Shown: one piece after another, positions 1 through 49,995 of the stretch
How positions within the stretch are numbered: position 1 is the stretch's first letter
Layout of the letters: each line of letters begins with the position of its first letter
Source of the DNA: Escherichia phage UE-S5b
Direction: 5' to 3' (one strand)
Length of the DNA stretch: 64,000 nucleotides
Sequence record: PP301341.1
Position numbers and translations under genes: made by a program
The notes under the pieces: generated by a model
Database searches by the model: none
The model's input: only the letters and a program-made list of their open reading frames with translations
What the model was told of the DNA's origin: nothing

Positions 1-259
1 TATCCTTACAGAATTCTTCAATACTTTTCTTACGCAGAGTCTCAGTCATAGCTGTCTCCTCTGCCAGTTTATTAACAAAGGTATGCATTTCTAATTTAGT
101 ACGGATGGCTTGTTTCTCTGCCATAGTACTTACATATGAATTAAGCATACCTACTGCTTTAGTTGCTGTACCGAATGTATCTGCAACAGTAGTAGCAGCT
201 GAGTTAACAGTACCAAGTAAAGTTCCTGCGGTCATACGTACAGTAGCTTGAGTAGTCAT
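1..259 (-). CDS. hypothetical protein, partial (ORF runs off the window start)
   Basis: Minus-strand ATG at 259-257 preceded by GGAG about 9 nt upstream; open to position 1 with no stop (MTTQATVRMTAGTLLG...). Not in the ORF track because it is truncated by the window edge. Confidence 0.4.
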   Translation of the reverse strand, partial: MTTQATVRMTAGTLLGTVNSAATTVADTFGTATKAVGMLNSYVSTMAEKQAIRTKLEMHTFVNKLAEETAMTETLRKKSIEEFCKD

Positions 260-647
260 GATGATAGCTCCAATAGTTGATGATAGGACGACATGTCCAT
301 AACATGCGGAGCATGTGTAACGTGTAAGGTGGGGTAGGGTAGTGGCTACACCGTCAACATACCGGGGGGGNTNGTTGAGTGTAAGGGTGTAGCCCCAGCC
401 ACAACACTGCTGCTGTATATAGCTATCACAATTTTGACATGCAAAAATATTATAGGCACTATCTCTATAAGCAGATAACTTTGAGGTACTAACATGAAAG
501 ATGGTTGGGGTAATTACAATCCTACAGACCCTTAGAACTGGCTTCACTTTATTGCCTGTGCCTTCGCTATAGGATTCATAGGTATTGTACTCTTGTCACC
601 GGTTCTGCCTTATTTATAAATATTATGAGAAGGTATATATCTACCCT

Positions 648-920: not shown

Positions 921-921
921 G

Positions 922-24018: not shown

Positions 24019-24475
24019 CAGGAGAATCCCCATGGATTTGTCATTCTTAACAGGCAACCCAACTCCACAGCCAGCTGCTATGTCTTGGATGTCTAATAAC
24101 AATCAGAACTTTAATACCCCGGCTATGAACTATAACCCAGGTGCAACTATTGGTATGGGGGCAAATACAGGAGTAGCCTCCCCTACTTCTTTCCTGTCTG
24201 GTTCAGCTGATCAGTTGGGATTGAATGTACCTACCTTCCAATTAGGACTGGGTGCACTTGGTTCATTAGCTAATATCTACAGTGGTTTCCAGGCTAATAA
24301 GTTAGCCAAAGACCAGTTGAACTTTACTAAGAGTGTTACTAACACTAACCTGAATAACCAGATTAAGTCTTATAACACTGCACTGGAAGATCGTGCTCGT
24401 AGCCGTGCTACAGCAGAGAACCGTGACCAGTCTACTGCTGATGCTTATATTGCAGCTAATAAATTAACCCGTTAA
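24011..24475 (+). CDS. virion protein (unknown function)
   Basis: 154-aa ORF overlapping the upstream stop. Confidence 0.45.
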   Translation: MFNRRIPMDLSFLTGNPTPQPAAMSWMSNNNQNFNTPAMNYNPGATIGMGANTGVASPTSFLSGSADQLGLNVPTFQLGLGALGSLANIYSGFQANKLAKDQLNFTKSVTNTNLNNQIKSYNTALEDRARSRATAENRDQSTADAYIAANKLTR

Positions 24476-24487: not shown

Positions 24488-26452
24488 ATGGCTCAAATTA
24501 CATGGCGTAATGTTGATGCACCTAACTTCTCTGGAGTAGGTGACAGCATTCGCACATTTGGTAGCATGATAGGTAACGCCACCTCCGGCTTAAGTGATGC
24601 ACTGGGTAATTTCCAGAACGCTGCCAAGCAGGAGGCTGGCAATGCCGTCATGATGAATGCTATGCAGTATCAAGATCCTACTGAGTACCGTAATGCTTTG
24701 GCATCAGGTGCACTGTTTCAGGGGGTTGACCCTTCATTGGTAAACCAGCGTACTCTCCAGAATCTGGATGAGCGAGCAGGTACACTGCTGACTCAACAAG
24801 GACAGCAGGGAACCAATGACTACATTGCATATCGCTTTGGTCGCTTAAAGGATATTAACTCAGCACTAGATAATGCTTCTCCGGCTATTCGTTTATTGTC
24901 TGAGGCTTATCAGTCTGGTGACCAGAATCGTATTAATACTGCATTGGGTCAGACTCGTGAGGCATTATCTACGCTCCCAGCTGACCAACAGTTAGAATTG
25001 TTAGGTAGTTTACAAGGACAGGGTAGTGCTGCTATTAATCAGGCGAGCAATCGTTTTGATTTGGGTGTTGCTCAACGTAATGATGCCGATAGTCAGGCAG
25101 CTATGGGTGTAATGGCACAGATTACCCGTGGTGCTGAGAACCCTAATGATGCCCGTCTGTTGGCAGAAGCATACAGTAAGAACCTGTCTCCAGTTGCACA
25201 GGCACGCTTGCAGGGATTACTGGCTAATGCTTACCCGGGTGTTTACGGTAATGGTGTAGGTGCTACGTCTGCTCCTGGTACTGCTGGTACTCGTCAGGGT
25301 TCACCTTACGATGTTACTTATCAGTTTGCTGGTACATCTACTCCTATTACTCAAATGAGTATTGGTGATGTAATTAAACACCAGGATGGTATGAAATCGA
25401 ACCAGGGTGCTTCCCCTGTTGGTGCATTCCAGATTAACCAAGCTACCTTGAAAGACTTTGCCCCCAAAGTTCTTGGTTCAGATTGGCAGAACCAACCTCT
25501 TTCCCCTGAGAACCAGGAGAAGATTGGTAAGGCTATTTTTGAGGCTCGTAAGAATGGTAACCTTAAAGATACCTGGGCTGCTCTTCCTAACTCTACCCCA
25601 GGTGCTTATAAGGATATGACTTGGGAACAGATTAAACCTGTTATTGCCCAAGCTGAAGTAGGGGCTGACCCATTCGCTCTGATTCAGAATAATCAAGGAA
25701 ATCAGGCAGTATCCACTCTGGCTCAGGGTATGATTGGTACTCGTTCTATGCAGGATAATACCGGTAGTCTTAATACTGACTTCCTTGGTACTGTCACTGA
25801 TAATACTCCAGTAGGTGAAATTGCTAACCGTCTATTAGATGGTGACTTTAAAGGTGCTGACCGTAACTGGGTACTGAACCGACTAACTGATATTTCTCAA
25901 CGTGGAAATATGTCACCAGCTATGGCTGCTGCTGTTATGCAGCGTGCACAGACTGGTGTACCGGAAGGTTACATTAGCCGTGCTATTGATGCAGTTAACC
26001 CATTCATTACCAACGAAGCCGGTAATGGTATGCGTCTTAATGACCGTTTGGTAGATCAGTTAATTGAGGGTGTACAACGTGGTGAACCACTGGAAGGCAG
26101 TGTGCGTAATCTTGGACGTGCTCAAGCTATGCAGAACATTCAGGCAGCACAGACTGCTTATGATGCTGCTGTAGCTGCACTGACAAATACTCAGAACAAG
26201 ATTAACACCGGACAAACAGGACTTACTGCATTGTTACCTGCACGTCAGGAAGCTGTTACTAAAGCTGCTGCAATGCTTCAAGCTGCACAAGCCCAAGTGC
26301 AAGCAGACCCAGCTAACCTGGCTCCAAGAGGTTTTCGGTCACAGGNTAGTGTGGACAGAGCACGAGCCAAGGAAGATGAAGAACGTGCTGCACGTTANCT
26401 ACGTCAGGCACANGGTTTGCCTGAGTATATGCAACCNAGACAAAATCGGTAA
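24488..26452 (+). CDS. internal virion protein, possibly with a muralytic-like domain
   Basis: 654 aa; low-complexity Q/A/N-rich N-terminal half; central segment ...GASPVGAFQINQATL... loosely resembles GxxQ motifs of transglycosylase-like folds (weak). Confidence 0.5.
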   Translation: MAQITWRNVDAPNFSGVGDSIRTFGSMIGNATSGLSDALGNFQNAAKQEAGNAVMMNAMQYQDPTEYRNALASGALFQGVDPSLVNQRTLQNLDERAGTLLTQQGQQGTNDYIAYRFGRLKDINSALDNASPAIRLLSEAYQSGDQNRINTALGQTREALSTLPADQQLELLGSLQGQGSAAINQASNRFDLGVAQRNDADSQAAMGVMAQITRGAENPNDARLLAEAYSKNLSPVAQARLQGLLANAYPGVYGNGVGATSAPGTAGTRQGSPYDVTYQFAGTSTPITQMSIGDVIKHQDGMKSNQGASPVGAFQINQATLKDFAPKVLGSDWQNQPLSPENQEKIGKAIFEARKNGNLKDTWAALPNSTPGAYKDMTWEQIKPVIAQAEVGADPFALIQNNQGNQAVSTLAQGMIGTRSMQDNTGSLNTDFLGTVTDNTPVGEIANRLLDGDFKGADRNWVLNRLTDISQRGNMSPAMAAAVMQRAQTGVPEGYISRAIDAVNPFITNEAGNGMRLNDRLVDQLIEGVQRGEPLEGSVRNLGRAQAMQNIQAAQTAYDAAVAALTNTQNKINTGQTGLTALLPARQEAVTKAAAMLQAAQAQVQADPANLAPRGFRSQXSVDRARAKEDEERAARXLRQAXGLPEYMQXRQNR

Positions 26453-26457: not shown

Positions 26458-26482
26458 ANAAAAGCCCTTCGGGGCTTTTTTC
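26458..26482 (+). terminator. rho-independent terminator
   Basis: AAAAGCCC-ttcg-GGGCTTTTTTC immediately after the stop of 24488..26452. Confidence 0.6.
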
Positions 26483-26528
26483 TTACACAGGCTTACTGTA
26501 GAGTAAGCTTCCTATATACGATATAAGT

Positions 26529-29500
26529 TTGAACAGGAAACATGCTATGTCAACATTTGACCGTCTGGCAGGTTTCGCAGACAGCATCACTAATGCTAAG
26601 CAAGTCGATGTCTCTACTGCAACCTCTCAGAAGCAAGCTGCACAAGGGCAAAGCCCTTCCCAATTAACCCCAGAGAATGCTTACAATCTCCAAACTGGTC
26701 GTGTAGGTAATCTTGGAATCGGTGCATTCGAACCAGGTTCACTTCAGGCAGATTTCACGCAAGCCTCCCCATTAGAAATTCTTAATAAATACGGTAATGA
26801 GCAAGGTCTACAGATTCTTAATAGCCGGGCTAATGCTGCTGATGCTGTACGTCAGGACTTATCTAAACAACGTACTAACGCAGAAGCATTTGGTGATACT
26901 CTTTCTGGTGTTGGTCTTGGTGTTGCTAATACCCTTGGGGGCATTGCTGCTCTTGGCACAGGTCTGGTCAATGATAATGCCGGGGCATCCATTGCTTCCG
27001 GTATGGATTGGCTGAATGAAGGGGTACACAATCTACAGTCTGATGCTCTGAATGCTACCCGTAAGGTTGTTCAGAATCAGAACCAGATTTCTGCACAAAA
27101 GAACCAGAAACTCTACGAAGAAGACATTAAAAATGGAGAGAGCAGTTTGGTTGCCTCTCTGTCTCGTATTGGTCGTGATGCTTTTGATTCTGTTGCTAAT
27201 ACGCTTGATAATGGTATGGCTGCTACTGATGGGCTGAGTGAAGGTGTTGGTTCTCTCTTTACCGGTGGTCCATTAATTCGTGGTGTATCTGCACTCGGTA
27301 AAGTAATGGTAGGTGGTGATAAAGCTGTTAAGGGTATTACCTTAGCTGCTGAGTTAGGTTCACGTCCTGCACAGGTTGCATTGTCTGCTGGTCGTGTTGC
27401 TGCACCTGCTATTGCAATTGGTGGTATGGAAGCTGGTGGTGCATACCAACAGACTGCTTCCGAAATCATGAAGATGTCCCATCAAGAATTGGCAAGTAAG
27501 TCTCCTGTTTATCAACAGCATATCGCTGATGGTTTATCTCCTGATGAAGCACGTCGCCAAACTGCATCTGAAACGGGTATCATTGCTGCTGGCTTAACTG
27601 CTCCGGTTGCTGCTGCTACTGGTCCTCTGGTATCCAAATTTGAACTTAACCCACTTAAGGTAGGTTCGCTGGCTGGTGCTGGTTCTAACATGCTACGTGA
27701 AACAGTAGAAGAAGGTATTCAGTCTGGTACAAGTCAGTTTGCACAGAACAAGGCAATTCAGGGTAATGTAGATGCTAAGCGTGATTTGCTTAAAGGTGTC
27801 GGTGAGCAAGCAGGTCTTGGTGCACTCTACGGCTTCGGTAGTGCTGGTGTTGCTCAGGCTCCAGGTACAACTGTTAAAGCTGTTGGTGCTTCTGCTGGGC
27901 CTGCTTTACGTACTACTCTGGCTGGTGCTTCTCTGGTTGGTAGTGCATTAGCAAAAGCTGCCTCTCCTATTACTAACATCCTGGTTCAGCGTGGCGAAGA
28001 AGTTGCTAAGCGTAATGAACAAGCTTCCCCTGTATCTGATGCTACGGTTAATGCTGCTGCACAAGAAGCTACTGCTCAAGCAGAACAAGCACAAGCAACT
28101 GTACAAGAAGCAGTAGATGCAATGGATATTTCTCCTGAAGAGAAAGCTGCTGCTACTCAGTATGCTGCTGACTTAACTCAGGCAATGAAATTTGACCCAG
28201 TAGAACTGGAACAAGCTAACCCAGCAATCCGTGAAGCTGTTTCTGGTTCCACTAACCGTGTTGAAGCTATTCAGAAGATGGCTGACCTGGTTAATACTGC
28301 CGAAGACCCTAACGTTCAAATGGAAGCTGCAATCCAGATGTATGACAACATCATGTCTATGGATAGCTTCATTAACCGTGATCCTGGTGCTTTAGCTAAT
28401 CTGGAACAGGGTTCTCCTGCTGCTAATATTGTTGACCAGTTCTCCGGCCTGATGGCTAACGTTCAGAATACACCAAAGGTACTTCGTGCATTCCGTGCCA
28501 TCCATTCTATGATTCAGGAACAGGCTGAAGCAGGTAAACTGAAAGCTACCGAAGAAGCTAACCAAGCCCAAGCAAACAACATTGCTATGGCTGCTGATAT
28601 GTCTCCAGAAGTACTGGATGCAGACTCAGTGAACATGGTTCTGAAACATGCAAGTGAAGGTAAGATTACACTGGGGAATCGTCAGCGTGCTGCCCTGCAA
28701 TCTGCTGCTGCTCTATTGCAAGGAGCACGAGAATTTGACGCTAAAGCAGAAGAACTAGGCTTACGTCCTCAAGACATTGTTAGTAAACAGATTAAAACCG
28801 ACGAGTCTCGTTCTAATGAAGGTCAGTACTCTGCGTTGCAACATGCTAAACGCATTCGTTCTGCGTACAACTCTGGTAACTTCGATTTGGCTTCCGCTTA
28901 CCTCGACGACTTTATGAAGTTCGCCCAGCACATGCAGAATAAGGTCGGAGCGTTGAATGAGCATCTGATTTCTGGGAATGCGGATAAGAATAAGTCTGTC
29001 CATTATCAGGCTCTTACTCCCTCCCGTGAATGGGTACGTAGTCGTACTGGTCTTGGTGTCAATCCGTATGATACCAAGTCGGTTAAGTTTGCCCAGCAAG
29101 TAGGACTGGAGGCCAAAACCGTAGCTGATATTGCTAACGCACTTGCTACGGCTTACCCGGAGCTTAATGTTTCTCATGTGAAGGTTACTCCATTAGATTC
29201 ACGTCTGGACAAGCCTGCTGCCCAGGTAGTTAAAGAGTTCCGTCAAGGTGGTCTTGATGCCACTCAGTCTCAACAGACCAATGAACCAGTGAATCAGGTT
29301 GATGAAACTCCTGCACCAGCGCAAGAGACTACTACTACTGTACAGCCTAAAGCTAAACCAGTGGTAGAAAATAAGACTGTTCCTGTTAAAGAGGCTAGTT
29401 CAAAAGCAGAAGAAGTCTCTACTACTAAGTCTGAAACAGTAGATGCTACCCTCACCAATGAGGATACCACTCAAAAAGTAGCTGAAACTAAAACGGAAAT

Positions 29501-32500
29501 GGAAACAGTTTTCCCTGTCTATAACAATGACAAGACACCGAACCAGTTCCTGAAATCATTTACCCTGCCGGAAGAACCTAAGTCTCGCACCATTGGTTCT
29601 GAATCCCCTTTGACTGATATTAAGCAAGCACTGTCTTCTACTGCACGCTTTGAAGCATTCACTCAAAAAGAAAATAACGCTCTCACAAGTGATGTGATTA
29701 AGCGTTATCAGGACTTAATGGGCTTTGGTGAAACTCTGAAGACTACTCTGTCTGATCGTCTGGCTAAGTTTCTTGCTAATAAGAACGTTGGTAAACGCTT
29801 TGCAGAAGGCACAGAGGCTAACCGTTGGGTAGGTGGTAAGTTACTTAATATCGTAGAGAAAGACGGAGACACCTTTAAGTTCAATGACCAGTTGTTAGAG
29901 ACTGCTGTACTTGCTGGTCTGCAATGGCGACTGACTGCTACACAGAATGCTGCTGTTAAAGACATGAAAGATGTAGCTGCTATTACTGGAGTAGAAGCAT
30001 CCTTGTTACCTGAAGGTATCCTGGCTGAATTTGAGAATGCTCAGACTCTGGTTGAAGCTACTAACTCACTGGCTCAAAAGATTGAATCTTACTGGGGATT
30101 GAATCGTAATCCTAATGCACCACTGGGTTATACCAAAGGTATTCCAATGGCAATGGCTACAGAGATTCTGTCTTCTCTCATTGAGATGGGTGAAGTTAAA
30201 GAGTCTATGCTTGATGTGTCTGAGATTGACCCAGACTCTAATAAGACCGTCGGTCTGTATACCATTGAGAAGCTGGATGATAACGATGCCATTAACAAGT
30301 TCCCTACTGCTATCGAGGAAGCTGTTCTCGTAGAACCAGAAGAGAAAATGTACTTTGGTGATGATATTCCTTCCGTGGCTCAAACTCAGTTACGTAACCC
30401 TGCTGTTAAGAATACCCCAGAGCAGAAAGCTGCTCTTAAAGCAGAACAGGCTACCGAGTTCCGTGTACACATGCCGATGGTTAACTTCTATGAAGCATTA
30501 GGTCGTGACAACATTCTGGAACTGATGGGTGCTGGTACTCTTAATCCTGAACTGCTGAACGTGAACACTGCTAAGTCACTGGAGGGTAAAAACCTGTCAG
30601 TGTCTATGGCATATGATTCCCTGTTCGGTGTAATCAACCAGTTACAGGAACAGGAGAATGGTCTGGATACGCCTATTCACTATGGTTACAACATGACCCG
30701 TGTAGGTCGTATGCAGATGTTAGGTAAGAACAACCCACAGTCCAGCAAGCTGGTTCGTGAAGCAATTCTGCCAACCTTCTCTACTATCGACTTAAGTAAT
30801 GAAAACAGTCAGACGTTCTCTGATTTCCAGTTAGGTCTGTCTCAGGCATTAGGTATCAAGGTTCATAATATGTCCCGTGAAGCTATGTCTGAAAAACTGA
30901 CCAAAGCTCTGGAAGGTAATTTGAAACCTGCTGTTGATATGATGGTTGAGTTTGATAAGTCCGGGCACTTACCAGCCGATGCAGTAGATATTCTTAAGAC
31001 ATCTCTGGGTGGTGATAAATCATTCGTAGCTCTTATGGCTCTTATGGAGTATGCCCGTTACCTGAACAGTGATGACCGTGCCAACTTTAATACCCCACTG
31101 TACGTTGAAGCCGATGGTGTAACCAACGGACCAATCAACGCAATGGTATTAATGACTGGTGGTAAGTTCACTTCAGACTGGATTAAGAATACTGCTAAAG
31201 GTGGTCTGTTCTTCGGTAAAGCTGGTAAGACTATGAATGAACATCGTTCACAGGATGACAGTGTTGACCTGTATGAAGCATCTACCAATGGTCTGCAACA
31301 AGCACTTAATGAGTTACGTACTACTTACCGTAACAACGTTCCGGTTATGAACCAAATGAATCATCTTCAGAAGTTAATGGACCTGTTTATTAAAGACTTT
31401 AACCTGAATGAAGACGGTACTCTGGACCTGAAACGTGGTATCGCTAAAAACCCACTGACCATTACCATCTATGGTTCAGGTGCTCGTGGTATTGCTGGCA
31501 AGATGGTTAGTGCAATTACTGACACCATCTATGAACGATTCAGTGATGTTCTGCAAGCTCGTGCTGCTGACCCTAGTATTTCCCCAGCTATGGCAATGTT
31601 TGGTAAGGAGGCTGCGTCTGAGGCTGATGCTCAGGCTATGCTGGATACTTTCCTTACTTCTATGGAAGCACTGACTGGTAATGTTCCAGTTATGCGTAAA
31701 GGTGAATTGTCTATTCAACAGGTAGAAGGTGCTCTGACTGGTAAGTTAGACCCTCAGAAGTTTACCGTATCGGGTAATGCCCTGAAGAACTTACAAGAGA
31801 ACATGCTTCACCTGTTCGTTGAACCAATGCGTACTGGTATCCGGAATACTGTTGGGGAAGGTCTGATGCATTCTACTGAGAACTTGCAGAAGGCTACCCA
31901 GATTCAGTCTTTGGTTCTACAAGACATGTTCCAACAAGCAGTACAGGCTAAGCTGGCAGAAAAAGAAAAAGACCCAACCTGGAAGAAGGGTGATTTCTTA
32001 ACACAGAAAGAACTGAATGAAATTCAGGAATCATTGTCTCCACTGGCTCCAATGATTGAGACTGGTTCACAGACTTTCTATATTGCTGGTAGTGAGAATA
32101 CTGATGTTGCTAACCAGGTACTGGCTACCAACTTAGATGACCGTATGCGTGTGCCAATGAGCATCTATGCTCCTTCTCAGGCAGGCGTTGCAGGTATTCC
32201 ATTTATGACCATTGGCACTGGTGATGGCATGATGATGCAGACCCTTTCTACTATGAAAGGTGCTCCGAAGAATACCCTGAAAATCTTTGATGGTATGAAC
32301 ATTGGTATCAACAACATCACTGATGCAAGTCGTAAAGCTAACGAGGCTGTATACACTTCCTGGCAGGGTAACCCTATCAAGAATGTTTATGAGTCTTTTA
32401 CTAAGTTCATGAAGAACGTAGACTTCAGCAAACTATCTGATGAAACCAAACAGGCTATCGCTAAATCTGCTCTGGAATATGACCAGCGTGAAGGTGCTAC

Positions 32501-35500
32501 CGATGACCTGTTACGTGTTGGTGCTGAACAGATTGAACGTAACCTGCGTAATATTGCTCTGGGTGTAGATATTCGTCACAAAGTAATGAACCAGGTACAG
32601 ACTACTGTTGACCAGATGGCTGCTGTTGGTGCTCCTTATGTGAACAACGGTAAAATCTCTCTGGAAGGTCTGACCGTAGACCAACAAGTAGCTAAGCTAA
32701 ATGAACTGTTCGATGCTGAATTAAACAAACGTCGTGATGCAGTACGTGCTGCTAAAGTAGAACCAGTGAAAGAAGTGCCAGCAATGGAACAGGTTGGTCG
32801 TGTACTGAAGTCTGGTGTACGCCTACTGTCTAATACTGCTATCTCTAAGCTGGCTAAAGAGATGTCTCCGGAACAGCAAGCAGTACTGAAAGAAGTACAG
32901 AAATCCCTTGCTGCTAAAGACTATAAGGTTGTTTACGGTACACCTTCCCAACTGGATGCTTATGCTATTGAGAAGAATATTACTCGCCCAGCACCAGAAG
33001 ATATTGAAGCTGCTGAAGCTGGTAATGCGTATGGTTGGACTAACTTTGAAGATAAGACCATCTACTTAGTTACCCCTTCCTTAGAGACTCTGGTTCATGA
33101 ATTGGTGCATGCTTCTACTTTTGAATCTGTACTGGCTCACTATGAGGGTACTCCTAATGAAGCGGTCCAGAACATTGAAGACCTGATGAACCAGTTCCGT
33201 GCTCTGGATGTTAAGGATGAATCCCCGGCAGTTCGGGAAGCATATGCAGATGCTCTTAATACTATTAACGGTCATTTATCTAATGGCTTTATTGAGCCAG
33301 CAATGGCTAAAGCTGCTGCACTGAATGAGTACATGGCATGGGGTTTAACCAACCGTGAACTGATTAGTAAGCAGAAGAAAACCACTGCACTTAAGACTAT
33401 GGTTCAGGCTGTATATGAAGCAATTAAACGTCTGGTATTCGGGCGTAAGAAAGCACCAGCTAATGCAGATGATATGTTCTCTGGCTTACTGTTTAACTCG
33501 TCCGTAGTTATGCGTGGGCAAGCTCCTACTGCTGCTGTAGCCAAAGATACTACTCTGTTCCATAACAAAACGTATGGTGACAATACTCGTCTGGAAGAGC
33601 TAGGGAAAACCTTCGATAAACTGATTACTGACTACATTGGTTCTGAACCAGTACAGCAAGTAATTCGTAAAGGTAAGTTCTCTGATGCAGTGGTTAATGC
33701 GACTAAAGTAACTCGTGATGTTCAGGCTCATGGCTTCACTATGAATATGCAGGAACAACGTCTCTTTACTAACATTGTTGCTGCTCTGGCTACTGAGGCT
33801 GCTATTAATCCTGCTGCTCTGGCTCGTGCGCAGGAATACTACACACATGTTACTAAGAACCTGACCGTTGAGTCATTCATGNCTGACCCAGATAGTACTA
33901 ACCCTGCTGACCGTTACTATGCACAGCAGAAGTTCGATACCATCATGGGTGCTAACAACATTGAGTTTGATTCACAAGGTCGTTCCTCCTTACTGCCTAC
34001 CTTTATTGGTCTGGCGATGGTAAGTGAAGAGGTACGTAAAGTGCTGGCTGATATTCCAGTTATGAAAGTAGACAAGAAATCTGGCAATACCGCTGATGCA
34101 ATGCTGACTAACATCGGTACTGCTGCAATGGCTAGTCTGAATGCTCGTGTAGCAGGAGATACTAAAGCTACCAACGTACAGGAAGGTATGGATGCACTGG
34201 CTCAGACAATCATGCAGACCAGTCTTAATGCACAATCCTTCTATGATTCCGTTGCTACTCCTACGGGTAATGCTATTGATCGTGCTAACCAGTATCTGGT
34301 GGACTCTATTGATGTACTGTCTACCCGTGCTTTAGAAGGTGCTCGTGAAGTTGCAGCTAATACCAAGAACCCGTTGGTTAAAGGTGCTGCCCATGCTGCA
34401 CAATTAATAGCTGCTATTGCTACAGAGAAGAATGGTGCAATCGTAGCCGAAGGTGTTATGGCTGCAATGAACCAGGGTAAGGTATGGCAACCTTTCCATG
34501 ACCTGGTTAATGACTTAACTGGTCGTACTAAGAGCAATGCTTCTGTATATGATTTGATTAAAGCAGTGCGTGCACAGGTACAGGCTGACCGTCAACAGTT
34601 CCGTGAACATCTGCCCACCACTATTGCATCTAAGTTCAGCCGTAAGCTTACTAATGATGAGTGGAAAGCAATGCATACCGGTATGGGTAAAACCGACTTA
34701 GCTGTTCTGCGTGACACTATGTCTCTGGGTGAAATTCGTGACTTGCTGACTGACCAAAAGATTGTTGACCGTGAAGTGAATAAGCTGGAAGCAGATTTGC
34801 AGAAACAAGCAGGACGTAACTGGCCTTTGATTAGCCGTAAATCTAAGCAACTGGCTCAGTACATGATTAATGGCACAGTTGGTAATAACTTGCTGCGTAA
34901 TGCTACTGCAATCTCTCGTATGCTGGGTGAACGACAGGCTGCACGTTCTACTGTAGACGTAGCTCAACTGGATAAACTGATTACTCTGTATGCACTGGAA
35001 GCAATGAGTAAGACTGACCGTGAGATGTTATCTTCACTGGCTCAATCAGAGATTGAAGGCATGGACTTCGCTACTTCTTATCTGGTTGGTCAGCGTAAAG
35101 ATGAAATGGCTAAAGCCAAATCTGATACTCGTGCAACTCTGAACCAGTACAAAGGGTATATTCCTGGTGAGACTAAACAGGGTGTTAACTTGATTGTTGC
35201 TGAAGATAGTCAGTTTGCTGATTTGATTGAGAAGTCCTATGTACGTCTGGGTACTTATCAGGGTAGCTCTGCTAATCGTGGTCCAGCACGTAGCTACTAC
35301 TTTGCACCGGTACAGGCACAGGCTCCATTCTCGCAAGGTATCTTACAGAACGTTCGCAATACTGCTGGTGGTGTAGACCTTGGTACAGGCTTTACGATGG
35401 GTACAATGGTAGCTGGTCGTATCACTGACAAGCCTTCTGTAGACCGTATCACTAAAGCACTGGCTCGCGGTGAACGTGGTAATGAACCACTGCTGCCTGT

Positions 35501-36899
35501 ATATGATGATAAAGGCAATGTGGTTGCTTATGAGCAATCTATTGACCCTAACATGCTGAAGCACATTGAGGGTGAGAACCATCTCGCTCGTGCAATCGGT
35601 GTATGGCGTGGTCGTCAGGTAGAGGAAGCTAAGGCTCAGCGTTTCAACGATATGCTGATTGAGAACCTGCATAGCATGTATAAAAACGACATTAAAATGT
35701 CTGCCTCTAACAAGTCACAGTACGTTAACCTTCTTGGTTCTAAACTGGACCCAGTAACTGCTGATGCCCTTAAGCTGATGAACAGTGAAACTCGTCAGAA
35801 AGCAGAAAGTCTGTTTGGTCCTGGTGAGTTGTGGGTACGTCGTGACATGCTGAATGATGCACTGGGCTATCGTGCAGCTTCCGTAGGTGATGCCTGGTCT
35901 GGCAATTCTCGTTGGTCACCAGAAACACTGGATACCTTCAAGAAAGCTATGTTGGGTGTATTCGGCAACCGTGCTTATAAGTATGTAATGGGTGGTGAGA
36001 ACCTGGTTCAAAACTTAGTTAAAGAAGCCAAAACTCTGATTGTAGTTAAGTCAGTAGTTGTTCCTGCTGTTAACTTCCTGGCTAACCTTTACCAGATGGT
36101 TGGTCGTGGTGTACCTGTTAAGAACATTGCTAAGAGCATTCCACAGAAGACTGCTGAGATTAACCAGTACCTGAAATCTCGTCTGCGTCAGGTAGATGCA
36201 GAAGCAGANTTACGTGCAGCTACTAACCCGAACCAGATTCGTAAGCTTAAGGCTGAAATTCAGTCCATCACTGATAGTCATAAGCGTATGAGTATCTGGC
36301 CTCTGTTAGAAGCTGGTGAGTTTTCTTCAATTGCAGATGCTGGTATTGGACGAGATGACATCCTGATTACTGAAGGTAAACTTCACGAATACATGGATAA
36401 ACTGGCTGATAAGTTACCTAAGTCTGTACGTAATGCTGGACGTTATGCCCTTATCACCAAGGATACTGCTTTATTCCAGGGTATCCAGAAGACGGTTGAG
36501 TACTCTGACTTTATTGCTAAAGCAATCATCTATGATGATTTGACTCAGCGTAAAGGTAAGACTCGTGAAGAAGCACTTGGACGTGTAACGGAAGAGTTCA
36601 TTAACTATGACCGTCTGCCTGGTCGCTTCCGTGGGTATATGGAAAGTGTTGGTCTTATGTGGTTCTATAACTTTAAGATTCGTTCTGCAAAAATTGCAGT
36701 ATCCATGATTCGTAACAACCCGGTACACGCAGCTATGGCTATGTTGGCTCCAACTCCTACCATGTTTGGTAATGTTGGTTTACCTATTCAGGACAACATC
36801 TTCAGTATTGCTGCACAAGGCAATCTCGGTTACTCCTGGGGCTTCGGTCAGGGACTTCGTGCCCATAACCTTAACCCTTGGCTCAATCTAGCTAACTAA
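26529..36899 (+). CDS. giant virion-encapsidated RNA polymerase (N4 vRNAP-like)
   Basis: Single 3456-aa ORF; central region has a T7-class motif B with exact spacing R-x3-K-x7-YG (RGIAKNPLTITIYGSG, ~nt 31430) and a downstream motif-C-like KIFDGMNIG; lies at the end of the structural module as in N4-like phages. Confidence 0.85.
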   Translation: MNRKHAMSTFDRLAGFADSITNAKQVDVSTATSQKQAAQGQSPSQLTPENAYNLQTGRVGNLGIGAFEPGSLQADFTQASPLEILNKYGNEQGLQILNSRANAADAVRQDLSKQRTNAEAFGDTLSGVGLGVANTLGGIAALGTGLVNDNAGASIASGMDWLNEGVHNLQSDALNATRKVVQNQNQISAQKNQKLYEEDIKNGESSLVASLSRIGRDAFDSVANTLDNGMAATDGLSEGVGSLFTGGPLIRGVSALGKVMVGGDKAVKGITLAAELGSRPAQVALSAGRVAAPAIAIGGMEAGGAYQQTASEIMKMSHQELASKSPVYQQHIADGLSPDEARRQTASETGIIAAGLTAPVAAATGPLVSKFELNPLKVGSLAGAGSNMLRETVEEGIQSGTSQFAQNKAIQGNVDAKRDLLKGVGEQAGLGALYGFGSAGVAQAPGTTVKAVGASAGPALRTTLAGASLVGSALAKAASPITNILVQRGEEVAKRNEQASPVSDATVNAAAQEATAQAEQAQATVQEAVDAMDISPEEKAAATQYAADLTQAMKFDPVELEQANPAIREAVSGSTNRVEAIQKMADLVNTAEDPNVQMEAAIQMYDNIMSMDSFINRDPGALANLEQGSPAANIVDQFSGLMANVQNTPKVLRAFRAIHSMIQEQAEAGKLKATEEANQAQANNIAMAADMSPEVLDADSVNMVLKHASEGKITLGNRQRAALQSAAALLQGAREFDAKAEELGLRPQDIVSKQIKTDESRSNEGQYSALQHAKRIRSAYNSGNFDLASAYLDDFMKFAQHMQNKVGALNEHLISGNADKNKSVHYQALTPSREWVRSRTGLGVNPYDTKSVKFAQQVGLEAKTVADIANALATAYPELNVSHVKVTPLDSRLDKPAAQVVKEFRQGGLDATQSQQTNEPVNQVDETPAPAQETTTTVQPKAKPVVENKTVPVKEASSKAEEVSTTKSETVDATLTNEDTTQKVAETKTEMETVFPVYNNDKTPNQFLKSFTLPEEPKSRTIGSESPLTDIKQALSSTARFEAFTQKENNALTSDVIKRYQDLMGFGETLKTTLSDRLAKFLANKNVGKRFAEGTEANRWVGGKLLNIVEKDGDTFKFNDQLLETAVLAGLQWRLTATQNAAVKDMKDVAAITGVEASLLPEGILAEFENAQTLVEATNSLAQKIESYWGLNRNPNAPLGYTKGIPMAMATEILSSLIEMGEVKESMLDVSEIDPDSNKTVGLYTIEKLDDNDAINKFPTAIEEAVLVEPEEKMYFGDDIPSVAQTQLRNPAVKNTPEQKAALKAEQATEFRVHMPMVNFYEALGRDNILELMGAGTLNPELLNVNTAKSLEGKNLSVSMAYDSLFGVINQLQEQENGLDTPIHYGYNMTRVGRMQMLGKNNPQSSKLVREAILPTFSTIDLSNENSQTFSDFQLGLSQALGIKVHNMSREAMSEKLTKALEGNLKPAVDMMVEFDKSGHLPADAVDILKTSLGGDKSFVALMALMEYARYLNSDDRANFNTPLYVEADGVTNGPINAMVLMTGGKFTSDWIKNTAKGGLFFGKAGKTMNEHRSQDDSVDLYEASTNGLQQALNELRTTYRNNVPVMNQMNHLQKLMDLFIKDFNLNEDGTLDLKRGIAKNPLTITIYGSGARGIAGKMVSAITDTIYERFSDVLQARAADPSISPAMAMFGKEAASEADAQAMLDTFLTSMEALTGNVPVMRKGELSIQQVEGALTGKLDPQKFTVSGNALKNLQENMLHLFVEPMRTGIRNTVGEGLMHSTENLQKATQIQSLVLQDMFQQAVQAKLAEKEKDPTWKKGDFLTQKELNEIQESLSPLAPMIETGSQTFYIAGSENTDVANQVLATNLDDRMRVPMSIYAPSQAGVAGIPFMTIGTGDGMMMQTLSTMKGAPKNTLKIFDGMNIGINNITDASRKANEAVYTSWQGNPIKNVYESFTKFMKNVDFSKLSDETKQAIAKSALEYDQREGATDDLLRVGAEQIERNLRNIALGVDIRHKVMNQVQTTVDQMAAVGAPYVNNGKISLEGLTVDQQVAKLNELFDAELNKRRDAVRAAKVEPVKEVPAMEQVGRVLKSGVRLLSNTAISKLAKEMSPEQQAVLKEVQKSLAAKDYKVVYGTPSQLDAYAIEKNITRPAPEDIEAAEAGNAYGWTNFEDKTIYLVTPSLETLVHELVHASTFESVLAHYEGTPNEAVQNIEDLMNQFRALDVKDESPAVREAYADALNTINGHLSNGFIEPAMAKAAALNEYMAWGLTNRELISKQKKTTALKTMVQAVYEAIKRLVFGRKKAPANADDMFSGLLFNSSVVMRGQAPTAAVAKDTTLFHNKTYGDNTRLEELGKTFDKLITDYIGSEPVQQVIRKGKFSDAVVNATKVTRDVQAHGFTMNMQEQRLFTNIVAALATEAAINPAALARAQEYYTHVTKNLTVESFMXDPDSTNPADRYYAQQKFDTIMGANNIEFDSQGRSSLLPTFIGLAMVSEEVRKVLADIPVMKVDKKSGNTADAMLTNIGTAAMASLNARVAGDTKATNVQEGMDALAQTIMQTSLNAQSFYDSVATPTGNAIDRANQYLVDSIDVLSTRALEGAREVAANTKNPLVKGAAHAAQLIAAIATEKNGAIVAEGVMAAMNQGKVWQPFHDLVNDLTGRTKSNASVYDLIKAVRAQVQADRQQFREHLPTTIASKFSRKLTNDEWKAMHTGMGKTDLAVLRDTMSLGEIRDLLTDQKIVDREVNKLEADLQKQAGRNWPLISRKSKQLAQYMINGTVGNNLLRNATAISRMLGERQAARSTVDVAQLDKLITLYALEAMSKTDREMLSSLAQSEIEGMDFATSYLVGQRKDEMAKAKSDTRATLNQYKGYIPGETKQGVNLIVAEDSQFADLIEKSYVRLGTYQGSSANRGPARSYYFAPVQAQAPFSQGILQNVRNTAGGVDLGTGFTMGTMVAGRITDKPSVDRITKALARGERGNEPLLPVYDDKGNVVAYEQSIDPNMLKHIEGENHLARAIGVWRGRQVEEAKAQRFNDMLIENLHSMYKNDIKMSASNKSQYVNLLGSKLDPVTADALKLMNSETRQKAESLFGPGELWVRRDMLNDALGYRAASVGDAWSGNSRWSPETLDTFKKAMLGVFGNRAYKYVMGGENLVQNLVKEAKTLIVVKSVVVPAVNFLANLYQMVGRGVPVKNIAKSIPQKTAEINQYLKSRLRQVDAEAXLRAATNPNQIRKLKAEIQSITDSHKRMSIWPLLEAGEFSSIADAGIGRDDILITEGKLHEYMDKLADKLPKSVRNAGRYALITKDTALFQGIQKTVEYSDFIAKAIIYDDLTQRKGKTREEALGRVTEEFINYDRLPGRFRGYMESVGLMWFYNFKIRSAKIAVSMIRNNPVHAAMAMLAPTPTMFGNVGLPIQDNIFSIAAQGNLGYSWGFGQGLRAHNLNPWLNLAN

Positions 36900-36905
36900 A
36901 TGAAA

Positions 36906-36930
36906 AAGCCCCTCATTAGAGGGGCTTTAA
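36906..36930. terminator. bidirectional rho-independent terminator
   Basis: AAAAGCCCCTC-atta-GAGGGGCTTTAATTTTT between convergent vRNAP (+) and 36937..37437 (-). Confidence 0.6.
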
Positions 36931-36936: not shown

Positions 36937-37437
36937 CTAAACTAACACCCAGTCTTCAGCTAATATATCTGATTGGGATGGGACCCAAGGCATAAACTGG
37001 TCATCAACAGTTTTGATTCCTAACCATGGACGAGGTTTCAATTCATCAGCAAGTCCTGGACGCTCTAAGCTACTGCTATTCCATTCTTGAGCAGCAACGT
37101 ACTCAATGTACATTCCTTTACCATTCCAGCCTTTACGGGCTAGTTTGAAGCCGGATTTGAGAAGCTCTACTGCATGACCAAAGGTGCAACCTTTTTCTAC
37201 GTCATGGTACGCAGTTTCAAATGCAGATTTAGGTGACCAGCTAATATAGCCACGGAACTGAGGATGGTTAGACTTAGAGTCTGGGTACTCTACTAAGTAA
37301 CCTTCTTCTAATGGGTCTTCATTAGCAGGTACATCCCAGCCACGAAGTTTGCAGTATGTTTCTTTGTTCATTCGGAAACCATTTACACACTTGGTTCCGA
37401 TATAATTGGTAAAATGGACTTTAATTTCTTCTGACAT
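36937..37437 (-). CDS. DUF2829-like protein, candidate Tad2-type anti-defence signal sponge, with an unknown N-terminal domain
   Basis: About 166 aa from ATG 37437 (GAGGT RBS); C-terminal half AVELLKSGFKLARKGWNGKGMYIEYV...PWVPSQSDILAEDWVLV matches the K-G-W-N-G-K-G ... LAEDW pattern I recall for DUF2829. Confidence 0.5.
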   Translation of the reverse strand: MSEEIKVHFTNYIGTKCVNGFRMNKETYCKLRGWDVPANEDPLEEGYLVEYPDSKSNHPQFRGYISWSPKSAFETAYHDVEKGCTFGHAVELLKSGFKLARKGWNGKGMYIEYVAAQEWNSSSLERPGLADELKPRPWLGIKTVDDQFMPWVPSQSDILAEDWVLV

Positions 37438-38105: not shown

Positions 38106-38386
38106 ATAAAAAAGTCCCCCAGAGTGACGGCTCCAGGGGACTTAGTACTATTTACCCATAGCTGGGAGGCTTTTGGTTCTTACCACGAAGACAGTCCACG
38201 CTGACNAGNCTTGGGATTGATAGTCCCGTTCCTGTGGTAATTACTCAGGCTAGGATTTAAGGAGTTCCTATTCTCCAGCGAAATTCCCGTCGANGGGAAT
38301 AACAATACAATAGCAGNCACTGGACTGTCTTACCAGTGTTGTCTTTAGAGTGCNATGCAATCAGGACTATGTTACTGCTGAATGGG

Positions 38387-40903: not shown

Positions 40904-41458
40904 TTACGCCTTTATTAAATTAAGAAGGTTTTGGAAAGCTGGGAGATTTACACCAGCGTGGATTGCACCGATTGCATCTGCTAAGTGCTCATTCTTATTC
41001 AGAAGTTTACCTTTTTTATCTGTGAGCCAGTTGGCTTCTGGATAGATAGCATGGGCAGCACGAATCATCGTGTCTTTGGATGCAGTTTTATCACCGACCA
41101 GTGCAAGTTTATTTTCAATTGGGGATACTTCAAAGATTGGACAACCCAATGCACGAAATGCACCAATTAATCCTACGCATACGCCATAGGATTTCATACC
41201 GTTAGCAGACTGAGAGCCTACTGGTACTTCTACGAATACTGCTTTAGCAGACCGTAACCATTCTTCACAACCAAGAAACAAATCGTGAGCGGCTTGTATA
41301 TCTTTGGAGTTGGTTCGAACTTGTTTGTTGTGGTCAACTTCAGTTTGAACCAGTTTAAGTTCGACCTGCTCGAAGACGCCGGACTCAATGTCCAGCATCC
41401 CACGAGCTAAACCCCAATTGCGGAGACTAATGTCTGCACCAACAATTGGGATTTTCAT
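40904..41458 (-). CDS. RuvC-like Holliday junction resolvase
   Basis: 184 aa; MKIPIVGADISL (first-strand Asp), VFVEVPVGS (Glu), C-terminal HLADAIGAIHAG (Asp) fit the RuvC-fold catalytic layout. Confidence 0.55.
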   Translation of the reverse strand: MKIPIVGADISLRNWGLARGMLDIESGVFEQVELKLVQTEVDHNKQVRTNSKDIQAAHDLFLGCEEWLRSAKAVFVEVPVGSQSANGMKSYGVCVGLIGAFRALGCPIFEVSPIENKLALVGDKTASKDTMIRAAHAIYPEANWLTDKKGKLLNKNEHLADAIGAIHAGVNLPAFQNLLNLIKA

Positions 41459-42255
41459 TAACGTTTACCGAACAGTGATTTACCACCAGCAGGAGCAGTA
41501 CCCGTGCCAGCACTTGGTTTAGGAGGCAAGCCACCTTTGCCATTACCACCAGCAGAACCCTTGGTCTTATCACGGGTTTTACCCTTGTTCTTTTCTAACC
41601 ATGCTGCATAAAATACAGCCAGTTCTGGGGTCAGTTCTTTCTCAGCCTTCTCTGCTTCCTGAGCCTCGACGACTGTGACCAGCAGTTCCGGGTGAAACAC
41701 TTTCTGAATCTCGTTTACTTCACGGGTTTCACCGGAATCAACGTAACCGTTGTCACCCTTAACCTGCTTAGATTCCAGAACCTTTTCCAGGGCGAAGGTA
41801 ACAGTCTGACCAACCAGGTCTACTGGAACCATGACAGATTTATTAACTTCTGCTTTAGCATCGAAGTCATAGACTTTAACAATCTTCTCTTCGAAGTCAG
41901 CTTCAGGCAGTTCCGTACCGGTAGCCATCAGCATCATGTCGTTAATGACGGTGTATCCCGGCAGGAAGTATTCTTTACCGTTCTTCTCGTAAGTAGGCTT
42001 ATTGCCTTTAGAATTACCAGAAGTGAAGTACACCTGTGAACGGAACTCGCCAGCATCATTACCATCAGAACCTTTCAGGTTTTCAATGATTAACTGCATC
42101 CAGTCTGCACCAGAGTCAGCTTTACCTACGTAAGCTACTTTTACAGTACCGGTGTAGATATCTGACTCCTTTGCACCGAAGCCACCACCACCAAGGGAGT
42201 CTTTTACAGCTTCAACGTTTTTGGTTTTTTCTTTCAAGTTACTGAACAGTGACAT
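41458..42255 (-). CDS. putative single-stranded DNA-binding protein (N4 SSB-like by size and position)
   Basis: 265-aa ORF with a Gly/Pro-rich flexible C-terminal tail ending ...SLFGKR; sits between resolvase and Sak4-like ATPase genes. Confidence 0.45.
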   Translation of the reverse strand: MSLFSNLKEKTKNVEAVKDSLGGGGFGAKESDIYTGTVKVAYVGKADSGADWMQLIIENLKGSDGNDAGEFRSQVYFTSGNSKGNKPTYEKNGKEYFLPGYTVINDMMLMATGTELPEADFEEKIVKVYDFDAKAEVNKSVMVPVDLVGQTVTFALEKVLESKQVKGDNGYVDSGETREVNEIQKVFHPELLVTVVEAQEAEKAEKELTPELAVFYAAWLEKNKGKTRDKTKGSAGGNGKGGLPPKPSAGTGTAPAGGKSLFGKR

Positions 42256-47114: not shown

Positions 47115-47419
47115 TATTCCCCCTTGGGAATCATGTTTGCCTGGAACTCTGGTTCAGACATCAGGCCCAGGTTGTTAATAGATAGATAAACAATATCTTT
47201 CAAATCAACTGAGGTATCGAAACGCTGATCCAGACTAATCTTCAGTGAGTGATTGGCACGAGCCAAATCTTTATAGGTCACATGAGGTTCGTCAGTGAGC
47301 AGCATTGTGTTCATGGTAAGCAGGGAGCCATCATCAGCTTTAGGAAGCTGGAAGATTACCTGTGCTGCCACCATCCAATGATACTTTTTGACTACAGTTT
47401 CTTTAGTACTTTTGGTCAT
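47114..47419 (-). CDS. hypothetical protein
   Basis: 101-aa ORF directly downstream of, and overlapping the stop of, the DNA polymerase gene. Confidence 0.45.
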   Translation of the reverse strand: MTKSTKETVVKKYHWMVAAQVIFQLPKADDGSLLTMNTMLLTDEPHVTYKDLARANHSLKISLDQRFDTSVDLKDIVYLSINNLGLMSEPEFQANMIPKGE

Positions 47420-49995
47420 GCGAATGCCTTTTGAATTATTTGATGAACTTCTTCTGGGGTAGCGTGATTTGGAATTTCAATCTCGTTAGCCCACGTTGGG
47501 TAAAACAAGGATAGTTCCCCACCCAAACCAACTTCTGGATGAGCAATATCAGGATGATCCTGCCAGTTAACGGCTTCAACCAAGTGCTTGTTCGTATACT
47601 GCAAGGTGTCCATGTTATCGCGAATCATGAAGTATTGGGCATCATGAATGTGAATACAAGGGCGTATATCTAACCTGAACTCACTGGTTCTGACTTTACG
47701 CATAAACTCTGAGCCAGCACGGTTATTCAGTAGACACCAGCTTTGACCTAATGCGTTACCAGCAGTTCTGCCTTCTGCTTCTGCTTCATATGGAGTCTTA
47801 CATGTCCCACGTAATACCTGAGCCAGTAAAGGAGTACGCACTCTCAAACCAAATGCAGCAGTTACATAACCAGTCTTAGCAGCTTCATCTAGCTTAGCCT
47901 GAACCCACATATCACTAACTACATAGAGATCGTGATAACGTTTCTCTGTAGTCTTAGCCTTCTCTTCGGAGAAGCCACAGTTTTTCATTAAGCCCATATA
48001 AGTACCACCATAGGTAAGTAAGAAGGTTGGAGCCTTCGAGTCACTACGCAATGATTTGTACTTATGCTGAATGGAGTTAATGGATTCTACTGTGTCTTCA
48101 ATGTCTGGCATCTGCTCACCAAAATAAGCATATGCGCGAAGACTATGACCGTCATAACCATCGGTATATACCTTAAGCTTCTGTGGGTCTTTAGTCGTCA
48201 GTGCAGAGATTCTGTCTTCCAGCGAGGCGAAATCCAAGCCGCAAAATATCCAGCCTGGAGGAGCTTCGAAGCATTTCTTAATCTTCTTGGCATATTTAGA
48301 GCCGGATGGANTTGTTTGTAGATTTGGCTCTGAAGCCGATAACCTACCGGAGACTGTGCCTCCCAGATTGAGGTTACCGAACAGGTAGTGCCAGCCATCT
48401 GGTCCCGGTTGGGCATTCCTGAAAGCTGGTATAAAGCTAGTGATAATCTTATCCACGAGCTTATAGTCGATAAGTGCATTGAGCAGTTCCTTAACATCTT
48501 CACTCTGCGTATGTGTACGCAGTGCTTTAATAGTGTCACCGTCAGTAGCAGGTTGCTTGCTCTTAGTAAGACCAAGAACCGGTAAGCCGATATAATCAAA
48601 TAACAACTTCTGTAGTTGTGGACCAGAGTTAGGATTAAACTCGATGTCACAATCAGCCAGTGTTACCTGTTTCTTTTTCAACTTAGCATTCTTATCGTCT
48701 ACCCATTCCTGACGAAGCATCAGGGTAAAGTTCTTCATGAGGTTAGACTCACGAATAGTTTTCAGAGCCTGGTTCCTGTCAGTTTCCATTTCTTCAGCTA
48801 CTTGGTTAACGGTTTCCATATTCATGGGCATACCGGTTAACTGCATCTGAATAATGTCTTCACAGGCTGGTTTAAAGATGTTGTTGTAAACATCTAGTTG
48901 GTCATCGGCAATGAGAGTATCCCAGTGCTTCTCATAAGTGTACCAAGTACACAATCCATCAATGAGGTTGTAGCGTAGCAATTGCTCATTGGGTATAAGA
49001 CGTATGTCTTTAATATCATCCTGAGCATAGTTACCAGCATATTCCTGAGCCTGGTCTTTCAGACTAAGGTGATTACCAGCACAACTGTTAGTAGCCAAGT
49101 AGGTAATTAACTTAGTACAGTCCCAATTGCGTAGCATGATCTCCATGCCGTGCAGTAAGCCTTCCGTATCAATCAGGTTATCCATGAACAGCTGATAGAT
49201 AAGTATGTACACGTCATAGCTAATGTTGTGATACATCTGCCGTTGGGTGTACTTAATGAAGAACTCACGCAGAAGGTTTCGAACAATATCATTACGGTTG
49301 ATACGCCCGTATGGTGCTTCTGTAGCCCCAGGAATTGGCTCGTAGTCCACATTAAAGGCTATGCCTTGTGTCTTACTCCAACAGAATGTAATTGTTCCTA
49401 TACCAGCGTTATAATGCTTTAAACCGAATGCTTCGATGTCTATAGCCAAAGGCTTATTCATCTCAAGCAACTGGTCTAACCAGGCTTTAATCTTCTCAGG
49501 AGTATCTGGATAGGCTTCAAACTCAATGATTCCCTGACCTGGTTCAGCATACTGCCCACGTATATGGTTGAGTAATGCATCCATACCCTGAGCAATCTTG
49601 GATTTCACTACAGGTGGGTCATAAAATACCTGCCTGTAGCTAGGCGTATAGATAACCTTCTGCTTACCCCATACTGAGTCACAAACATAGCCGAGGTTAG
49701 CCTCTGCTTTAGCTTCCTTAGTCAGTATTTTAAAGTAGTCAGAATCGGTACAGATAATGTATTGAGTTTCCGCATCATCCAGTACTTGTTGCAGTTCCTG
49801 CTGTATGAACTCCTTAATCTCCCTTGCAGGAGTCTTCTTCTTGCCTGGAGCAGAATGAAGTTCAATGAAGATGAAGTCTTCCATGCTTAGGTCATAAGGC
49901 AGCAGGTAGGTTTTAATCATCTCCTCCCTTCGGATTTGATGACCGAGGATAGCAATAGGATACTTACCAGTATCCTGAGAGGTGATGTAACGCAT
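47416..49995 (-). CDS. family A DNA polymerase with 3'-5' exonuclease domain
   Basis: 859 aa; exo-I-like LAIDIEAFG; motif A GLDFASLEDRI; motif B RSDSKAPTFLLTYGGTYMG (K...YG); motif C CIHIHDAQYF. Confidence 0.8.
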   Translation of the reverse strand: MRYITSQDTGKYPIAILGHQIRREEMIKTYLLPYDLSMEDFIFIELHSAPGKKKTPAREIKEFIQQELQQVLDDAETQYIICTDSDYFKILTKEAKAEANLGYVCDSVWGKQKVIYTPSYRQVFYDPPVVKSKIAQGMDALLNHIRGQYAEPGQGIIEFEAYPDTPEKIKAWLDQLLEMNKPLAIDIEAFGLKHYNAGIGTITFCWSKTQGIAFNVDYEPIPGATEAPYGRINRNDIVRNLLREFFIKYTQRQMYHNISYDVYILIYQLFMDNLIDTEGLLHGMEIMLRNWDCTKLITYLATNSCAGNHLSLKDQAQEYAGNYAQDDIKDIRLIPNEQLLRYNLIDGLCTWYTYEKHWDTLIADDQLDVYNNIFKPACEDIIQMQLTGMPMNMETVNQVAEEMETDRNQALKTIRESNLMKNFTLMLRQEWVDDKNAKLKKKQVTLADCDIEFNPNSGPQLQKLLFDYIGLPVLGLTKSKQPATDGDTIKALRTHTQSEDVKELLNALIDYKLVDKIITSFIPAFRNAQPGPDGWHYLFGNLNLGGTVSGRLSASEPNLQTXPSGSKYAKKIKKCFEAPPGWIFCGLDFASLEDRISALTTKDPQKLKVYTDGYDGHSLRAYAYFGEQMPDIEDTVESINSIQHKYKSLRSDSKAPTFLLTYGGTYMGLMKNCGFSEEKAKTTEKRYHDLYVVSDMWVQAKLDEAAKTGYVTAAFGLRVRTPLLAQVLRGTCKTPYEAEAEGRTAGNALGQSWCLLNNRAGSEFMRKVRTSEFRLDIRPCIHIHDAQYFMIRDNMDTLQYTNKHLVEAVNWQDHPDIAHPEVGLGGELSLFYPTWANEIEIPNHATPEEVHQIIQKAFA

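Follow-up and report, generated by a model that had tools for sequence, protein, structure and literature searches.

A giant N4-type virion RNA polymerase gene in Escherichia phage UE-S5b: identity, domain map and predicted promoters

The 64,000-nucleotide (nt) stretch of the genome of Escherichia phage UE-S5b analysed here (sequence record PP301341.1; hereafter, the window) contains an open reading frame (ORF) of about 10.4 kb, which raises the question of what its giant product is and how firmly a function can be assigned to it. An earlier note, made from the letters alone, had taken it for an N4-like virion RNA polymerase (RNAP). With very high confidence, we identify the ORF as the gene for the virion-encapsidated RNA polymerase (vRNAP, the orthologue of N4 gp50) of a Gamaleyavirus, one of the G7C-type N4-like coliphages in the family Schitoviridae. 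The gene was known before: GenBank records annotate it, PMC11927229 describes it, and it is the orthologue of a very well studied phage enzyme.

The identification is carried by independent searches and by colinearity with N4 gp50, all of which supported the earlier proposal. Four vRNAP-specific Pfam domains scored above their cut-offs (N4_RNAP_helical, with an E-value of 5e-101, vRNAP_dom_2, vRNAP_dom and vRNAP_plug), and PHROG 2206, ‘virion RNA polymerase’, spans amino acids (aa) 25-3449 of the product. In the PDB search, the full-length N4 vRNAP chains 11gp and 9pnr cover aa 1-3449, and the mini-vRNAP crystal chains 3q0a and 2po4 cover aa 997-2069, in both cases with E=0. Global alignment with N4 gp50 gave 66.9% aa identity with 54 gap positions, distributed as 59% in the N-terminal domain (NTD), 71% in the polymerase domain (Pol) and 69% in the C-terminal domain (CTD); identity of the Pol domain to that of G7C reached 90%. 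At the nucleotide level, megablast revealed 99.5% identity to UE-S5a, UE-M3 and UE-M6 over all 10,371 nt, 97-99% to PBM-2/3 and PGN829.1, and roughly 92-95% to the remaining Gamaleyaviruses listed, including IME11, PhAPEC5/7 and phi G17. Query coverage was at least 80% in 61 records, with ‘virion RNA polymerase’ among their annotations. Positions 26529-36899 and 37000-61900 of the window are 99.4-99.7% identical to UE-M3, UE-S5a and UE-M6, and this high nucleotide identity places the phage in the genus Gamaleyavirus (Schitoviridae, Enquatrovirinae). PMC11927229 lists ‘RNA polymerase’ among the particle-associated proteins of UE phages detected by liquid chromatography-tandem mass spectrometry.

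The product is a colinear three-domain protein in which the NTD, a low-complexity linker, Pol, a short linker and an alpha-helical CTD follow one another, with domain boundaries transferred from N4 by alignment (Table 1). Every N4 segment has a counterpart in it, including the T/E/V/K-rich linker and the hydrophobic stretches of the NTD, which are Gly/Ala-rich and located at aa 118-142, 343-363 and 462-480. Pol is the best-conserved domain, with 84-93% identity to N4 around motif C, and insertions and deletions relative to N4 gp50 concentrate in and around both linkers. By analogy with N4, the NTD would function in membrane association and injection, and the CTD in encapsidation and autoinhibition of the Pol domain (PMC13434306, PMC13492108). 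The 3450-aa protein contains no cysteine, as is the case for N4 gp50; this absence has been noted in N4 and in roseophages, and PMC2784036 ties the lack of Cys to entry into the cell.

Is this polymerase equipped for catalysis? The central region aligns with N4 mini-vRNAP over about 1070 aa. The N4 catalytic residues R424, D559, K670, Y678 and D951 (mini-vRNAP numbering; PMC2784036, citing Kazmierczak et al., 2002), mapped with a 997-residue offset, correspond to identical residues in identical local contexts, and the T/DxxGR motif and motifs A, B and C all occur in the expected order. When ten vRNAP Pol domains, with identities reaching as low as 23%, were aligned, none of these residues varied. 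The T7-class spacing of motif B claimed in the earlier note is exact: R-x3-K-x7-YG is found only once in the 3450-aa protein, at aa 1630-1643, with about 0.015 occurrences expected for this composition, and also once in T7 RNAP, at R627. Likewise, the candidate motif C that had been pointed out turned out to be KIFDGMN, which contains D1915. Their T7 counterparts, R425, D537, R627, K631, Y639 and D812, were each confirmed in the sequence of T7 RNAP and are invariant in eight T7-like polymerases. Profile-profile comparison with these eight enzymes by hhalign gave a probability of 90% and an E-value of 1.7e-6 over 303 columns, pairing residues 1291-1659 with T7 314-656 and leaving T/DxxGR, A and B in register; motif C, beyond a long insertion, falls outside this local alignment. 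Since the 71% identity to N4 spans the whole crystallised mini-vRNAP, whose active site superimposes on that of T7 RNAP (PMC4496689), the same right-hand fold (fingers, palm and thumb) as in T7 RNAP is predicted.

Promoter recognition was examined both in the protein and in the DNA. In N4, promoter hairpins are read by K114, R119, W129, D901 and R904 and melted with the help of lysines K267/K268 (PMC4496689). Of six such N4 hairpin-promoter contact residues checked, 5/6 are conserved in the window protein; the five hairpin-reading residues are present as K1079, R1084, W1094, D1865 and R1868, and the melting lysine K268 is kept as K1233. For the DNA, a promoter pattern, GCTYCGCNNNTTNTGGA, was derived from the left end of N4, where it recovers three sites (P1-P3, at 93, 562 and 4551, upstream of gp1, gp2 and gp15). 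As the window, which runs opposite to N4, stops short of the early region, this region was searched in UE-M3, where three matches to GCTYCGCNNNTTNTGGA occur at N4-syntenic positions (0.32 expected; 0/200 shuffles reached three). The window itself contains one exact match, at 296-312 on the minus strand. All the sites of N4, UE-M3 and the window fold as template-strand hairpins with stems of 5-7 bp and a 3-nt loop, which reads GGA everywhere except in N4 P1 (GAA), and the outer stem positions vary among promoters yet remain complementary. The predicted promoters of the window and UE-M3 all combine a 6-bp stem with a GGA loop, unlike N4 P1 with its 5-bp stem and GAA loop. In N4 numbering, with the central G of the loop at -11, transcription from the window site would start at position 298 with GGA. 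Thus, early promoters of the hairpin type do exist, as the earlier note had anticipated, but the early region to which they belong lies past the right end of the window and not upstream of the gene; only the P1 copy of the terminal repeat is inside the window, and three further sites were seen in UE-M3.

The window match lies within the 401-bp direct terminal repeat, whose length agrees with that reported in PMC11927229. This repeat holds the start of a gp1-like ORF (ATG 259-257, minus strand) that leaves the window at its left end. As judged by eye, the repeat resembles the left end of N4 when its minus strand is followed from about position 396 downwards.

Several caveats attach to the assignment of the ORF to an active, hairpin-reading vRNAP. 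Asn (N1232) stands in place of K267, which helps to melt the promoter in N4. The promoter match in the window is by itself not significant, as 1.6 matches are expected in 64 kb, and it carries weight because of its position, its identity to the P1-type site of UE-M3 and its hairpin; the early region, where the remaining promoters are expected, is beyond the right end. When the Pol domain was compared with T7 RNAP by pairwise BLASTP, no match was significant (best E-value 0.11, in the T/DxxGR region), and Pfam PF00940 (RNA_pol) showed no match at E<=1. Hence, the anticipated alignment to T7 RNAP was obtained by profile-profile comparison for T/DxxGR, A and B but not by pairwise BLASTP, and the T7 link rests on the motifs, the profile-profile alignment and the N4 structures. 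At the sequence level, the enzyme is a distant T7-class relative, as described for N4, and does not belong to the curated T7-type Pfam family.

The replacement of K267 also favours the least improbable of the alternatives, namely that the protein derives from a vRNAP and has kept a structural or ejection role while losing polymerase activity. Indeed, the polymerase makes up only about one third of the protein, and the N4 NTD and CTD have non-catalytic roles (PMC13434306, PMC13492108). Nevertheless, the five catalytic residues and 5/6 of the promoter-contact residues checked are intact, Pol is the domain with the strongest conservation, and the hairpin promoters are maintained at syntenic sites with compensatory changes in their stems. 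A loss of activity is thus very improbable, and nothing contradicts the vRNAP identity, from which packaging, injection and transcription are predicted for this exact sequence by analogy with N4.

On the N4 model, the vRNAP gene would be expressed late and a few copies of its product packed per capsid. On infection, vRNAP would pass through the tail after the homologues of gp52 and gp51, its subdomains loosely joined to one another. In N4, the NTD is flexible, membrane-associating and tethered via a low-complexity linker of about 100 residues, and the protein has been proposed to cross the tail channel, about 30-35 Å wide, like beads on a string after gp52 and gp51 (PMC13492108, PMC13434306). 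Since the abstract and the discussion of PMC13434306 contradict each other as to which of gp51 and gp52 has the outer-membrane role and which the periplasmic one, both are cited here simply as ejection proteins. The NTD would then join the membrane, and Pol and the CTD would refold in the cytoplasm. There, host gyrase and single-stranded DNA-binding protein (SSB) are expected to extrude the 6-bp-stem, GGA-loop hairpins at early promoters, and Pol would read the loop via W1094, R1084 and K1079 and the stem via D1865 and R1868. The predicted outcome is the expression of early genes, including those for the RNAPII subunits, and assistance in pulling the genome into the cell. A further proposal, which we consider a long shot, is that the P1-type promoter of the terminal repeat, which sits at the late-gene end of the genome and is directed outward over the truncated gp1-like start, is functional instead of being a passive copy, and would provide the injected vRNAP with a second site, for example for tethering or pulling the far genome end, and that, together with K267N in the beta-intercalating hairpin, it would constitute a Gamaleyavirus variant of promoter opening or injection distinct from that of N4. 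The N4 terminal repeat carries P1 as well.

The limits of the gene also required revision. Only one long ORF is present at 26529..36899 on the plus strand, comprising 3456 codons when counted from a TTG, and the probability of an equally long stop-free run arising by chance is minute (ln P about -166). The single ORF of the earlier note therefore stands; its length of 3456 aa does not, as the biological start is almost certainly ATG 26547 and not TTG 26529, giving a product of 3450 aa. This choice is based on the ribosome-binding site 6 nt upstream, on the UE-M3 annotation, which has the same start (26547..36899), and on the homologous N-terminus MSVFDRLAGF, which opens N4 gp50. PMC11927229 gives 3456 aa, whereas the annotation in the UE-M3 record amounts to 3450 aa. 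The two N-containing codons that had been noticed inside the gene were located exactly where reported (33882 and 36209), and, since UE-M3 has sense codons at both sites, neither N conceals a stop or a frameshift. These two Ns, out of 65 across the window, could be taken to mean that the ORF is an assembly artefact fusing two or more genes across ambiguous bases; however, relatives have Ala and Glu codons at these sites, across the full 3450 codons, frame and length match those of UE-M3, and colinearity with N4 gp50 (3500 aa) holds as well, which leaves this explanation a negligible probability.

The claim that the product is a DNA polymerase or a translation factor, which stems from several GenBank labels of the orthologue (‘DNA polymerase’ in UE-M6, PBM-2, PBM-3, U1G and ST4, and ‘translation initiation factor 2’ in phi G17), is refuted as a set of annotation errors, because profile and structure searches give N4 vRNAP families only and because a separate ‘DNA polymerase I’ gene of the relatives maps elsewhere, in window 37000-61900. 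In IME11 (JX880034) the orthologue is labelled ‘hypothetical protein’. Correction of such misleading public labels is one use of the vRNAP assignment. In addition, the gene marks the window as a Gamaleyavirus (N4-like) genome and sets its orientation, and Table 1, which places domains and residues on window coordinates, is of practical value. UE phages have been proposed for the therapy of uropathogenic E. coli, so a clean annotation is of some value, although as a discovery the gene is of little importance.

Table 1. Coordinates of the vRNAP gene, its domains and motifs, and surrounding features in the window.
Feature	Position	Strand	Basis or remark
vRNAP coding sequence (3450 aa + stop)	26547..36899	+	ORF calling, PHROG 2206, N4 vRNAP PDB chains (E=0)
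Ribosome-binding site AGGAAA, 6 nt before ATG 26547	26535..26540	+	Block from this site to ATG conserved in N4
NTD, aa 1-914 (= N4 1-919)	26547..29288	+	59% identity to N4
Linker 1, low-complexity T/E/V/K-rich tether, aa 915-984, shorter than in N4	29289..29498	+	
Polymerase (mini-vRNAP) domain, aa 985-2071	29499..32759	+	70.7% identity to N4 1008-2104
-11 base recognition element K1079, R1084, W1094 (= N4 K114, R119, W129)	29781..29828	+	PMC4496689
T/DxxGR motif TRVGR, R1388 (= N4 R424)	30696..30710	+	
Plug insertion, aa 1424-1505, autoinhibitory module	30816..31061	+	Pfam PF21624; PMC4496689, PMC13492108
Motif A catalytic Asp D1523 (= N4 D559) in YVEADGVTNGP	31113..31115	+	
Motif B RGIAKNPLTITIYG: R1630, K1634, Y1642, G1643 (= N4 R666, K670, Y678, G679)	31434..31475	+	
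Specificity-loop contacts D1865, R1868 (= N4 D901, R904)	32139..32150	+	PMC4496689
Motif C catalytic Asp D1915 (= N4 D951) in KIFDGMN	32289..32291	+	
Linker 2, aa 2072-2081, 8 residues below N4 length	32760..32789	+	
CTD, aa 2082-3450	32790..36896	+	68.8% identity to N4 2123-3500
Ambiguous base N, codon 2446 position 1	33882	+	UE-M3: G (Ala)
Ambiguous base N, codon 3221 position 3	36209	+	UE-M3: A (Glu)
N4 gp52 homologue, ejection protein	24032..24475	+	60% identity; PMC13434306
N4 gp51 homologue, ejection protein	24488..26452	+	47% identity; PMC13434306
GC-rich hairpin + T-run after gp51-like gene, terminator-like	26460..26479	+	Sequence identical in N4
10-bp-stem hairpin between convergent vRNAP and gp49-like genes	36905..36928	.	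Terminator-like, both strands
N4 gp49 homologue, convergent downstream neighbour as in N4	36937..37437	-	75% identity
N4 SSB (gp45) homologue	41458..42255	-	59% identity
Copy of 401-bp direct terminal repeat	1..401	.	99.3% identity to last 401 bases of UE-M3
Template-strand hairpin ACATGC-GGA-GCATGT, predicted P1-type vRNAP promoter	302..316	+	Drives minus-strand transcription

The linker between NTD and Pol is variable among relatives. The vRNAP of VTCCBPA_322 has 106 extra aa in this linker, plus 4 and 10 aa, inserted between positions equivalent to aa 964 and 984 of the window protein (nt ~29440-29498), and match lengths suggest that the insertion is also present in U1G and PhAPEC5; the window protein and N4 gp50 are without it. 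It had no Pfam match and does not have a low-complexity appearance, and it sits in the tether that has to thread the tail channel. Within the CTD, a segment (aa 2653-3397; window 34503-36737) matches PHROG 19273 with an E-value of 2e-22, an unannotated family with a 4846-position profile. A check for the CTD in other kinds of giant phage proteins brought up nothing new: tblastn with the segment found 467 records, and 40/40 of those listed were N4-like genomes of 58.7-78.8 kb, nearly all of 66-79 kb apart from one short 58.7-kb record. PHROG 19273 is probably a divergent, larger vRNAP lineage, as far as these sequence matches indicate. A Nop5 match (E-value 0.17) in the Pfam scan at E<=1 was dismissed as noise.

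The surroundings of the gene are also those of N4, with gp51 and gp52 homologues on one side and a gp49 homologue on the other. Up to 36899 the plus strand carries the late genes; beyond that point the replication genes lie on the minus strand, and the early region comes past the right end. In the spacer between the gp51-like and vRNAP genes (26480-26546), a 7-bp inverted repeat, GCTTACT-gtag-AGTAAGC, was detected, and a block conserved with N4, GATATAAGTTTG, stands just before the ribosome-binding site; this block may act as a -10-like element of a late promoter or in regulation. A sigma-70 promoter scan across the vRNAP gene was uninformative (8 sites versus 16.8 in shuffled sequence). N4 SSB activates host RNAP at late promoters, and by analogy the SSB homologue may bear on expression of the vRNAP gene. 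An 859-aa ORF at 47416..49995 is equal in length to N4 gp39, a likeness in length alone.

Ambiguous bases in the window form clusters at 13328-13394, 17206-17275, 17807-17828 and 58813-58855, and several more, at 38206-38354, lie near two predicted tRNAs. Within ORFs, 38/53 are at codon position 3, where about 18 would be expected, and because of this over-representation they look like polymorphic, mostly synonymous sites. The pattern fits the consensus of a mixed population of very close relatives and not random sequencing dropout. ARAGORN called a tRNA-Ile(AAT) and an adjoining tRNA of undeterminable anticodon at 38385-38542 (minus strand), and did not call in the window the tRNA-Cys annotated in UE-M3 at 39299-39378.

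Among known systems, the closest counterparts are the vRNAP genes of UE-M3, UE-S5a and UE-M6. In UE-M3 the same gene (UEM3_026, WWE95516.1), with identical coordinates and codon number, differs by 47 nt and 14 aa, the two Ns included. The nucleotide differences fall in patches (27109-27207, 34475-34649 and 35051-35138), a distribution that suggests recombination among close relatives. Moreover, window 37000-61900 exceeds the equivalent region of UE-M3 and UE-S5a by about 356 bp and falls short of that of UE-M6 by about 146 bp, which makes the window a mosaic of indels with respect to these three closest records. Compared with N4 gp50 (YP_950528.1; PDB 2PO4, 3C2P, 3Q0A, 9PNR and 11GP), the protein is 50 aa shorter, mostly in and around the linkers. 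With T7 RNAP and the Autographiviridae enzymes it shares the T/DxxGR-A-B-C order, the catalytic residues and the R-x3-K-x7-YG spacing, whereas its inter-motif distances are larger (135/107/285 aa versus 112/90/185 in T7). In contrast with T7 RNAP, it is about four times larger, is presumably carried inside the virion, and, judging from its N4 homologue, would use single-stranded hairpin promoters instead of duplex ones. The crAss-like phage phi14:2 offers another giant polymerase, gp66, which is likewise encapsidated and ejected; it is likened here by description only, and it forms a single globular domain, has domains structurally similar to multisubunit bacterial RNAPs, and is nearer to the single-subunit RNAPs that serve RNA interference in eukaryotes, whereas N4 vRNAP stands closer to T7 RNAP (PMC13434306).

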